Below are positions 16,565 through 21,172 of a DNA stretch of 42,300 nucleotides, piece after piece. The stretch comes from Candidatus Pacearchaeota archaeon (lineage in GTDB: Archaea > Nanobdellota > Nanobdellia > Pacearchaeales > GW2011-AR1). A model generated the notes under the pieces. The model was not told where the DNA came from and did not search any database. It saw nothing but the letters and a program-made list of their open reading frames with translations. The position numbers and the translations under genes are program-made. Position 1 is the stretch's first letter. Each line of letters begins with the position of its first letter. The stretch covers positions 1-42,300 of the forward strand of contig JAGVXK010000008.1 in the NCBI GenBank assembly GCA_018303825.1. The letters are read 5' to 3'.

Positions 16565-16706
16565 TGCGGGGAGGAGGATTTGAACCTCCGAAGGCACTAA
16601 GCCACAGGATGTCTCAATCTGATAAGAGATTATCCTGAACAAAAATCTTCCTAACGGAAGACCGACTTCTTAAGTCCTGCGCATTTGACCGCTTTGCTAT
16701 CCCCGC
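16565..16706 (-). tRNA. tRNA-Leu(UAA) with a 58-nt intron (16611-16668) at position 37/38
   Basis: Acceptor GCGGGGA/TCCCCGC-A, anticodon arm CAGGA-CTTAAG^A-TCCTG, long variable arm, canonical bulge-helix-bulge (CUUA/UGAG central helix). Confidence 0.95.
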
Positions 16707-19088: not shown

Positions 19089-19910
19089 ATGGAAGCGATT
19101 GAAAAACTTAAAACTGAACTTAAATTAAGAGGCCTTTCTCCGCTTACTGCTAGGAATTATTCTTTTTTTGTAGAAAAGATGCTGAAAAGGACAAATAAGC
19201 CGGTTGAAGAGATAACCGAAGATGATGCGAGAGCATATTTATCTGAATTGTTTGAAACAAAATCCAAGAATACAATAATGCTTGCAGTGGCCTCGTTAAA
19301 ATTCTTTTACTCCCAGATATTAAAAAAAGATATCGGAGAGATAAGAGTTCCCAAAAAAGAGAAAACACTTCCGGAAGTCCTAACAAAAGATGAAGTGAGG
19401 AAGCTTATAGATGGAACTGATAATATTAAATCAAGACTGATAATTTCTATGCTTTATTCAGGAGGTTTAAGAGTATCAGAATTGGTTAATTTGAAAGTTG
19501 ATGACATTAATCTTGCTGAATATACCGGATGGGTCAGAAAAGGTAAGGGAAACAAGGACAGGTTATTTGCAATTTCCCAGAATCTTGCCCAAGAAATCAA
19601 GGAATACATTGAAGGAAGAGAAAATAAATATGTTTTTTCAAAAGAAAAGCCGTTAACAACGAGAAATGTCCAGAAAATAATTAAATTGACAAGGGAAAGG
19701 GCAGGGATAAATAAAAAAGTTACCCCGCATACATTAAGGCATAGTTTTGCAACCCATCTTCTTGAACAGGGAACAGATATAAGAATTATTCAACAAATGC
19801 TTGGCCACTCCTCACTTAATACCACCCAAATTTATGCTCATGTCTCTAGTGATGTAATTAAAAAAATTAAGAACCCTTTAGATGGATTGAATAATAAACA
19901 GAATGAATGA
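19089..19910 (+). CDS. xerA: Tyrosine recombinase, XerA-like
   Basis: GLRVSE, KG-K, HTLRHSFATH, LGHSSLNTTQIY (R-K-H-R-H-Y set) with an N-terminal SAM-like domain. Confidence 0.88.
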   Translation: MEAIEKLKTELKLRGLSPLTARNYSFFVEKMLKRTNKPVEEITEDDARAYLSELFETKSKNTIMLAVASLKFFYSQILKKDIGEIRVPKKEKTLPEVLTKDEVRKLIDGTDNIKSRLIISMLYSGGLRVSELVNLKVDDINLAEYTGWVRKGKGNKDRLFAISQNLAQEIKEYIEGRENKYVFSKEKPLTTRNVQKIIKLTRERAGINKKVTPHTLRHSFATHLLEQGTDIRIIQQMLGHSSLNTTQIYAHVSSDVIKKIKNPLDGLNNKQNE

Positions 19911-20376
19911 GATAAGATATCCAATAATAGAACACAATCTTAGGGAGGGTTTTGGCATATTTGTTTTTGCTGAAGATGAACCTCCGAGACCTACTTTCAA
20001 CATTGGCAGGATTGATGATAAATTGGCTTTCGCTCCCGAATATTTCCTAAAAGCAGATACAGTAGGGTATGGATTTAGGTGTTTAGAATATTTTTTGGCT
20101 AATCAGTTTTCTGGAAATGGAACGAAAATAAAATATCCCGAAAATTCTTTCGAAGCTGGTTTTGCTGACAGATTTGTCAAAAAAGGTGGGTTGATAATTT
20201 GTTTATCTGCGGGAAATGTTTTTACACTTATGGCTAGGCTGGCAAGGAATACCTCAACAATAAGTATCACGGAAAATAGTTTTGATAAAGCATATAGATC
20301 TTTTGTGGAAGATGGTGTTGTAGAAAGATTCTTTGATAAATTGTTGATGGGGAAAAGAGATTCAAAAAATACATAA
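19903..20376 (+). CDS. Hypothetical protein
   Basis: 157-aa ORF overlapping the xerA stop. Confidence 0.55.
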   Translation: MNEIRYPIIEHNLREGFGIFVFAEDEPPRPTFNIGRIDDKLAFAPEYFLKADTVGYGFRCLEYFLANQFSGNGTKIKYPENSFEAGFADRFVKKGGLIICLSAGNVFTLMARLARNTSTISITENSFDKAYRSFVEDGVVERFFDKLLMGKRDSKNT

Positions 20377-20470
20377 TATTTCATAACCATCCAATTTAAT
20401 CTTTTATCAGCATATTTGAAACTTTAAAGTGGTAAGATATCTATATATCTTGGTTAAATCTCTGTTCTCC

Positions 20471-20750
20471 GAAGCTGGCGGGACATTTCGGTTGTCCTGG
20501 AAAGGATGTCGCTATAAAAGCCTCTGTCAGGTGTGCAGCTATTAATATGGCGTCTGGACTATAACTCGTCATACGGAATCTGCATCTGTTAAGCTTATTT
20601 ATAGGTCGAAGGAGATAACCTTTAAAACATGTCAAGAGGTTAAGATTGAATTGGCGCTGTTTAAGGCACTTCCCTCACCGAGTCCAGATGCCTGAAACTC
20701 TTCAGAGTTTAAGGGACAGGAGACATGAAAGTGTCTTCTGTATCAGCTTC
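20471..20750 (+). ncRNA. Unassigned structured RNA, ~280 nt
   Basis: Terminal helix 20471-78/20743-50, 12-bp helix 20549-60/20681-92, hairpins 20481-97, 20695-710 and 20716-41 (GAAA loop). G-U pairs are tolerated only on the + strand. TATATA at 20442. GC-richer than its flanks. Confidence 0.65.
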
Positions 20751-20767
20751 ATATTCATAAAAATGAA

Positions 20768-20950
20768 ATGAGCAAAAAGAAATTGAAAAAAATGGTTGCT
20801 AAGAAGGTTAAAAAGACAGCACAACTAAGACGCGGCAGATCTTTTAGTGAAAAGTCTAAAGCCGGCAAGATAAGAAAAATAAAGGCTTCTTTGTCAAAGC
20901 ATCATAAGAAAAAAAACATCAGCAAAGGCTGGATGTTCTGGAAAAAATAG
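20768..20950 (+). CDS. Very basic 60-aa protein
   Basis: 21 Lys + 4 Arg and only 1 acidic residue; starts 17 nt after the RNA. Confidence 0.6.
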   Translation: MSKKKLKKMVAKKVKKTAQLRRGRSFSEKSKAGKIRKIKASLSKHHKKKNISKGWMFWKK

Positions 20951-20959
20951 TCATATCAG

Positions 20960-21172
20960 TTATTTTTTGTAATTCCCTTTGATTAAATCATAAAGAATAC
21001 AGGTATTTGCGAAAGGCTGTATATTTCCCACGACAATCATCCCAATCATATAAGAAATTGTCTTCTTTGAATCTCTCGTCTCCCTATTCCAAAAGGTTTT
21101 CATTAATGTTCCATCAACAAATCCTTCCAAAAATCCTGTTTTAACACTTCTTCCAGTAAGTTTATTATCCAT
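20960..21172 (-). CDS. Hypothetical small protein
   Basis: 70-aa ORF 9 nt downstream of rps9. Confidence 0.4.
   Translation of the reverse strand: MDNKLTGRSVKTGFLEGFVDGTLMKTFWNRETRDSKKTISYMIGMIVVGNIQPFANTCILYDLIKGNYKK

Follow-up and report, generated by a model that had tools for sequence, protein, structure and literature searches.

Bacterial RNase P, composed of the RNA RnpB and the protein RnpA, combines a small, very basic protein with a pseudoknotted RNA that has paired ends and is a few hundred nucleotides long, and the archaeal locus reported here has the same composition; the RNA is more conserved than the protein in both. The two differ in helix order and pseudoknots, and the RNA family here is not universal and has its partner gene co-transcribed directly 3' of it. 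The leaders of ribosomal-protein genes (L1, L10, S15) are likewise structured RNAs located 5' of a small basic protein gene on the same transcript, with the start codon beside the structure, and the protein here probably binds its RNA as well. However, the RNA here is much larger, is more conserved than the ORF and contains two pseudoknots; it also occurs without an ORF or with an unrelated microprotein, and the protein belongs to no ribosomal-protein family. Generic riboswitches and leaders are always located in the 5' UTR of the regulated gene and adopt ligand- or protein-dependent alternative structures. Here most loci have the 5'-UTR position, at least seven loci are RNA-only and followed by T-runs, and one position covaries with two partners.

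The ToxIN system shares the order of RNA gene, optional terminator and protein gene behind one promoter, as well as a patchy distribution and orphan RNA copies. Type III antitoxin RNAs (ToxI-like) consist of tandem direct repeats of ~34-36 nt in front of an endoribonuclease toxin gene. In contrast, the RNA here is one complex fold without tandem repeats (TRF finds none inside 20471-20750), and the protein is a helical Lys-rich peptide of 40-75 aa instead of an endoribonuclease. The glmS (RF00234) and GIR1 lariat-capping (RF01807) ribozymes are 5'-UTR ribozymes. Like the RNA here, they have a double-pseudoknot core of ~170-230 nt directly 5' of an ORF, and processing would explain translation without a Shine-Dalgarno (SD) sequence; the differences here are that no model matches, that the putative cleavage site has no conserved sequence and that RNA-only loci exist. 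The raiA motif RNA, OLE, ROOL and GOLLD are large orphan RNAs of bacteria, to which the RNA here is comparable in its ornate covarying fold; they are often found beside one gene, although they are apparently independent RNAs. The RNA here has no sequence or model similarity to them, is archaeal (DPANN) and has a near-obligate microprotein partner. To our knowledge, new large and intricately folded RNA families are rare, and there are almost none in archaea beyond the universal ones. The family here has two pseudoknots proven by covariation, keeps 73-83% identity across families and reaches a second phylum of genome-reduced symbionts, in which there is little room for non-essential DNA.

The locus and its predicted transcript

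The window is a stretch of 42,300 nt (contig C4; JAGVXK010000008.1) from a DPANN-type archaeon, the genome of which has 0.8 Mb and ~33% G+C and is 86% complete. An earlier note on this DNA had described an unannotated multi-helix RNA of ~280 nt with paired ends in a gap without a credible ORF. Both points hold, as the RNA at 20471-20750 is backed by covariation among homologues and 20377-20767 contains no conserved ORF. Absent from that note was the conserved 60-aa ORF at 20768-20950. The features of the locus are as follows.

20428..20449 (+): promoter, with a TATA box at 20442-20449 and a semi-conserved AGTGGTAAGATA-type element 5' of it
20471..20750 (+): whole structured RNA, 280 nt (covariance model R1, 217.6 bits, and homologue covariation)
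20472-20699 (+): conserved 229-position core of the RNA (R1 match)
20768..20950 (+): co-transcribed gene of the 60-aa Lys-rich microprotein; motif form in the window, GRSFSEKSKAGKIRKI
20963..20968 (+): T6 run, likely end of the RNA and ORF transcript (read from the sequence)

TATATAT is located at 20442-20448, ~24-25 nt 5' of the first strand of the terminal helix, in agreement with the TATATA reported earlier at ~25 nt upstream. TATA-like boxes recur at homologous loci (27-35 nt ahead of the model start in 25 of the 35 loci listed), and so does an AGTGRT-type element 5' of the TATA box. From the 5' end of the RNA to the stop codon of the ORF (20471 to 20950) there is no run of five or more T, and the spacer is too short to hold a promoter, so the RNA and the ORF are placed on one transcript. 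A 64-aa ORF on the minus strand (20441-20635) was rejected as a coding sequence, since its substitutions are base-pair compensations and are not codon-like.

Conserved fold and covariation

Searching 60 relatives with blastn gave 11 strong matches, which share 73-83% identity over ~200 nt and come from several families of the order. RNAalifold predicted 69 pairs from the first alignment of these 11 sequences, 35 of which show compensatory changes. This structure was then revised: P1 and PK1 were added, and the GGAC/GUCC pairing proposed by RNAalifold (18-21/228-231), which does not covary, was dropped for PK1, which does. In the revised structure 92.7% of cells were paired over the 11 sequences, compared with 35-44% when the partners were slid. 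The covariance model R1 (229 positions, 73 pairs) gathered 73 matches, 66 of them distinct, from two DPANN phyla. We define the R1 family by P2, P3, P4-P6, P7-P8, PK1 and PK2 together with a TATA box ~27-35 nt upstream. The window scores 217.6 bits over model positions 1-229, and every helix can be placed on its coordinates (all on the + strand).

20471-77 / 20744-50 (+): P1 outer, GAAGCUG/CAGCUUC
20477-80 / 20689-92 (+): P1 inner
20488-92 / 20677-81 (+): P2, UCGGU/ACCGA; 99.1% paired, GC to AU compensatory change in 8 sequences
20494-20507 (+): P3 hairpin, GUCC-UGGAAA-GGAU with a conserved UGRAAA loop; 98.8% paired, UA to CG in 14 sequences
20508-17 / 20599-607 (+): P4; 9 of 9 pairs with compensatory change
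20519-34 / 20582-95 (+): P5; in P5b 8 of 9 pairs with compensatory change
20546-52 / 20567-73 (+): P6, UAUGGCG/CGUCAUA; 6 of 7 pairs with compensatory change
20553-59 / 20682-88 (+): PK1, UCUGGAC in the P6 loop with GUCCAGA in the 3' tail
20577-81 / 20637-41 (+): PK2, AAUCU 3' of P6 with AGGUU in the P8 loop
20608-14 / 20669-76 (+): P7; 6 of 7 pairs with compensatory change
20619-35 / 20651-66 (+): P8; compensatory change in 8 of 10 lower and 5 of 5 upper pairs
20636-20650 (+): conserved P8 loop, 15 nt
20693..20743 (+): lineage-specific insert of 51 nt in the 3' strand of P1, with hairpins at 20695-20710 and 20716-20741

Ten nested helices (P1-P8, with P5 and P8 as two each) and two pseudoknots are supported by the 66 distinct homologues. 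In these, 94.5% of cells are paired (33-42% with slid partners), and the covariation score is 0.49 (0.07-0.10 in the slid controls). The homologue alignment and covariation analysis, which the earlier note had proposed as a check, found compensatory changes on both sides at 62 of 79 pairs. The five conserved pairs of PK1 (20555-59 / 20682-86) are 100% paired in the 66 sequences, and four of the five show compensatory change (UA51/AU9/CG6; AU54/GC12), while its outer pairs (20553-54 / 20687-88) are weaker and were unpaired in 5 and 3 of the first 11 sequences. PK2 is 95.4% paired, with UA53/CG10 at its closing pair. Since neither pseudoknot is part of R1, the alignment was not fitted to them.

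The fold is compact, with many invariant unpaired bases, and PK2 links its two arms, P4-P6 and P7-P8. P2, PK1 and inner P1 draw on one uninterrupted 3' strand (20677-20692), so that these three helices could stack as one long helix. All nine P1 pairs change on both sides across homologues. P1 is missing in one subgroup (L007, L036, L038, L046, L047, L049), and in the window it carries the 51-nt insert, so that it is peripheral. Among the aligned homologues only one other (G143, L032) has this insert, and both of its hairpins are kept there through compensatory changes. U20581 covaries with two partners, A20637 (PK2; UA53/CG10) and A20537 (AU37/GC9/GU12), which are columns 126, 194 and 77 of alignment A4. 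This might reflect a base triple, or mutually exclusive pairings and thus a conformational switch. A search by eye for K-turn and loop-E motifs in the RNA gave no convincing instance.

The window sequence folded by itself is not convincing (MFE z = -1.88 on the + strand, with 7 of 100 shuffles folding as well; z = -1.26 on the minus strand), and the significance comes from the comparative data. The MFE fold gives the terminal helix, a GGACA/UGUCC hairpin, a 12-bp long-range helix and two 3' hairpins, all of which the earlier note had listed, and the homologues separate them. The terminal helix GAAGCUG/CAGCUUC is present and its P1 pairs covary; the hairpin AAACUC-UUCA-GAGUUU and the GAAA-capped hairpin, both in the insert, are borne out by compensatory changes in G143; and the + strand is the right one, as the covarying helices with G-U pairs read on it. 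The 12-bp helix GGCGUCUGGACU/AGUCCAGAUGCC does not exist as one helix, although its strands do pair elsewhere: GGCG in P6, UCUGGAC/GUCCAGA as the 7-bp PK1, and UGCC as the 3' strand of inner P1. Covariation replaces the GGACA/UGUCC hairpin with UCGGU/ACCGA (P2) and GUCC/GGAU (P3), and rejects both the suggested pseudoknot UGGCGGG/CUCGUCA and the alternative pairing AAGGCACUU/AAGUGUCUU. The proposed resemblances, of the 5' part to an SRP Alu domain and of GACTA...AGTCC to group I P7, find support neither in covariance models nor in the revised structure.

Microprotein partners and RNA-only loci

At almost every locus a Lys/Arg-rich ORF of 38-75 aa is located directly 3' of the RNA, and the motif [GS]RxPSxKxKxSK[VI]xKL is common to 43 of these ORFs and loci. 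The entropies of the three codon positions are 0.93/0.75/1.57, and conserved Arg, Leu, Ser and Val residues draw on all of their synonymous codon families, which together indicate that the ORF is coding. The microprotein of the window matches the profile with E 1.3e-9, and in the AF2 (AlphaFold) prediction the GRxPS loop connects two helices (pLDDT 80). Pfam and NCBIfam contain no matching family, and searching 5.8 billion proteins by profile, as well as the ESM Atlas, gave hypothetical DPANN proteins only; one record carries the automatic label "histone". This dedicated microprotein is mostly left as "hypothetical" by gene callers and databases. One locus (L302:4731-4940, G293:C67) encodes a microprotein with the motif GRKPSxKSKxSK[VI] twice in tandem, and the same contig also holds an ORF-less RNA copy 2.5 kb upstream (1700-1927).

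The microprotein was found in 35 of 151 genomes of the order, and 34 of these are among the 39 RNA-positive genomes. In the 34 genomes with both, the gene and the RNA are neighbours without exception and agree in copy number, and the 112 RNA-negative genomes of the order gave one weak microprotein match. The same motif follows the RNA in the second phylum. Besides, there are loci at which the RNA stands without the ORF and is followed by a T-run (in G048, G053, G293 copy 1, G417, G389, G410 and G415), and in five of these genomes neither microprotein type was found anywhere; the microprotein profile had worked in the 151-genome search, which served as the positive control. The RNA keeps 73-83% identity between families, compared with ~26-41% for the microprotein.

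Some homologues form a divergent subgroup, which still aligns to R1 over its whole length with 44-105 bits, and by eye one member (L319) seems to keep PK1 and PK2. In three distant genomes these divergent RNAs (L319:510-707(-), L307:1169-1348(+) and L311:151-348(-)) are followed by an unrelated microprotein of 60-66 aa with four conserved Cys, the pattern MVCPKLxxGxC...C.RPY..KM.....C and a basic tail, for which Pfam has no matching family. The better conservation of the RNA, the RNA-only loci and the unrelated Cys4 partner indicate that the RNA is the core part of the system. Together they speak against a mere leader, and in favour of an RNA that functions in its own right with small cofactors that can be exchanged.

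The distance from the RNA end to the ATG is at most 10 nt in 19 of 31 loci, and 18 of these 19 have no SD-like sequence; of the 12 loci in which the spacer is longer, 5 do have one. In the genome of the window (G000), a TATA-like box stands 18-30 nt ahead of the first ATG in 34% of ORFs of at least 150 aa (background ~8%), and SD-like sequences are only weakly enriched (19% vs 9%); leaderless mRNAs therefore seem dominant there. In the window, P1 and the ATG are 17 nt apart, and this spacer contains a mini-ORF of two codons, ATG AAA TGA (20763-71), the stop codon of which overlaps the start of the microprotein in an ATGA arrangement; with this spacer and mini-ORF, a strictly leaderless product is not obvious.

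Distribution and possible roles

R1 is present in 39 of 151 genomes of the order (24 of 85 genera; 11 of 68 high-quality genomes), in 14 of 151 genomes sampled across the phylum and in 13 of 121 genomes of the second phylum, where the MAGs carry the NCBI labels Micrarchaeota or Bilamarchaeaceae. Overall the RNA occurs in ~10-25% of related genomes, although absences may be inflated by MAG incompleteness and by the stricter search filters. Some genomes hold two copies. A scan with a 17-base pattern was too loose, as 53 of the 80 public-genome matches listed were chance; all 27 verified matches among these 80 come from DPANN MAGs. We also considered a mobile element and rejected it: none of the 80 pattern matches in viral contigs is real by covariance model, blastn against phage and plasmid collections gave no match, and no neighbour other than the ORF is conserved (an integrase is nearby in 3 of 35 loci). 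The location of the RNA is syntenic within genera, and conservation of its neighbours does not extend past the genus level. The RNA tree groups the families, though not cleanly (15 label changes, compared with a minimum of 9 and a mean of 24 after shuffling), and a P1-less clade with 99% support mixes three families from two orders, which points to horizontal transfer or mis-binned contigs. For annotation, an R1-type model would be an aid in a recurrent "empty" gap of DPANN genomes.

The RNA is close to certain to be real and to represent an uncatalogued family. With Rfam 15, the whole window yields only two tRNAs at gathering thresholds, and 20300-20900 yields no match at E<=10 under permissive filters; 20 diverse homologues have no match at the RNA at E<=10 either, and full-text literature searching found no description of it. 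The three models named for a check in the earlier note were run and none matches at E<=10: Archaea_SRP (RF01857), a model with the helix 8 and helix 5 motifs, in 20300-20900, RNaseP_arch (RF00373), which encodes the universally conserved regions and the P4 pseudoknot, at the RNA, and group I intron (RF00028), with its P3-P7 pseudoknot core, which like GIR1 (RF01807) is without a match here and in the 20 homologues. The RNA is intergenic with its own TATA box and does not interrupt a host gene, as a group I intron would. A permuted RNase P, prompted by AGUCC and ACGRAA...GCUUA strings, was dropped, since the pairings differ and no model matches. That note had left the choice between a divergent housekeeping RNA and a new class of ncRNA, and it is the latter that stands. 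A length of ~225-280 nt, paired ends, pseudoknots and a raised G+C (0.40-0.43 at the RNA vs ~0.33 for the genome) would suit a highly diverged SRP, RNase P, 5S rRNA or tmRNA-like RNA. However, the genome has its own SRP RNA (C19:21864-22122, 72.5 bits), RNase P RNA (C11:29639-29964, 134.9 bits) and 5S rRNA (C11:27422-27536, 50.4 bits) elsewhere, so the RNA is not a diverged copy of these. In addition, RF00001 (5S, a three-way junction of 120 nt) and the rest of Rfam give no match at the RNA at E<=10, ARAGORN finds 0 tRNA or tmRNA genes in 20300-21000, and only a minority of related genomes have the RNA, all of which makes a housekeeping identity extremely improbable.

In our main reading, to which we give a probability of about 0.5, the RNA is a stand-alone functional molecule and assembles with co-transcribed cofactors into an RNP. 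A promoter-driven gene would produce an RNA of ~225-280 nt with two pseudoknots, which would be the functional core of a family that is patchy in DPANN archaea. The gene arrangement suggests that the 60-aa helix-loop-helix Lys-rich microprotein may bind this RNA as a cofactor or chaperone and so give an RNP. The same arrangement would allow the folded, protein-stabilised RNA to limit translation of the microprotein as a feedback, or processing at the RNA 3' end to free a near-leaderless microprotein mRNA. Since the start codon usually abuts the 3' helix stack without an SD sequence, either feedback or processing would set the amount of microprotein. Two points count against an RNP: one of housekeeping type would be expected in more than ~10-25% of genomes, and the RNA-only genomes show that the microprotein is dispensable. 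The activity of the RNA, once worked out, could reveal a new RNA-based function or a way of producing an RNA and its partner in fixed proportion. A bolder version, in which the RNA would be the catalytic or ligand-binding core of a new class of ribozyme or RNP of DPANN symbionts, served by interchangeable Lys-rich or Cys4 cofactors from the same transcript after processing, is put forward tentatively and is rather unlikely.

Other roles would follow from the position of the RNA in front of the ORF. It might be a purely cis-acting 5' leader, a riboswitch or autoregulatory operator, that controls the Lys-rich microprotein only: most loci have it directly 5' of the same ORF and within the same transcript, the start codon is right beside the 3' helices, and U20581 covaries with two partners, as alternative conformations would. 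Nevertheless, a leader would hardly be expected at RNA-only loci with terminator-like T-runs or in the five RNA-positive genomes without a detectable microprotein, nor would it be far more conserved than its supposed target gene or pair, in its divergent form, with an unrelated Cys4 microprotein. The microprotein gene is essentially never found without the RNA, unlike the genes of typical riboswitch regulons, and P1 is no conserved expression platform, since homologues may lack it or have 51 nt inserted in it. We thus regard a pure leader as unlikely. That the RNA is instead a self-processing 5'-UTR ribozyme of the glmS or GIR1 kind, cut near its 3' boundary to yield a near-leaderless microprotein mRNA, would agree with the compact core, the two pseudoknots and the many invariant unpaired nucleotides, with the 18 of 31 loci in which the ATG follows the RNA end by at most 10 nt and has no SD-like sequence, and with a genome that relies largely on leaderless initiation. 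Yet no known ribozyme family matches, the putative cut site has no conserved sequence, RNA-only loci have nothing to release and the spacer in the window is 17 nt, which leaves this version improbable.

A type III-like toxin-antitoxin or selfish module, in which the RNA would neutralise a toxic polycationic amphipathic peptide encoded downstream, appears to us a long shot of the same order. One promoter followed by RNA, T-run (at some loci) and protein is the order expected for it, and the patchy distribution, the two copies in some genomes, the variable neighbours, the strongly supported RNA-tree clade that mixes three families and two orders, and the existence of orphan RNA copies with essentially no orphan protein could all be understood in this way. 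But the RNA has no tandem repeats, unlike ToxI-type antitoxins, and the protein has no nuclease-like fold or family; the 73-83% conservation of the RNA across families and its invariant unpaired bases exceed what sequestering a peptide needs, the phage, plasmid and viral collections yielded no copies, and the location is syntenic within genera.

Several minor observations were made around the locus and its promoter. The region directly 5' of the RNA (19089-20376) encodes a tyrosine recombinase of the XerC/D type (273 aa), which overlaps by 8 nt with a 157-aa ORF without a family match, and a recombinase is also found 5' of the RNA in two other genomes (L048, L049). A tRNA gene of the window (16565-16706 (-); Rfam tRNA, 48.8 bits) has its anticodon loop interrupted by an intron of 61 nt. 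In many genomes the AGTGGT-type element (20428-20441 in the window) immediately precedes the TATA box of the RNA, and in the genome of the window (G000) three near-identical 30-nt AGTGGTTAYAAAT..AAGRTTTA blocks (C18:22503, C22:97122 and C22:24434) are located ahead of other TATA boxes; such AGTGGT-type and AGTGGTTAYAAAT..AAGRTTTA blocks may represent a lineage-specific promoter element.
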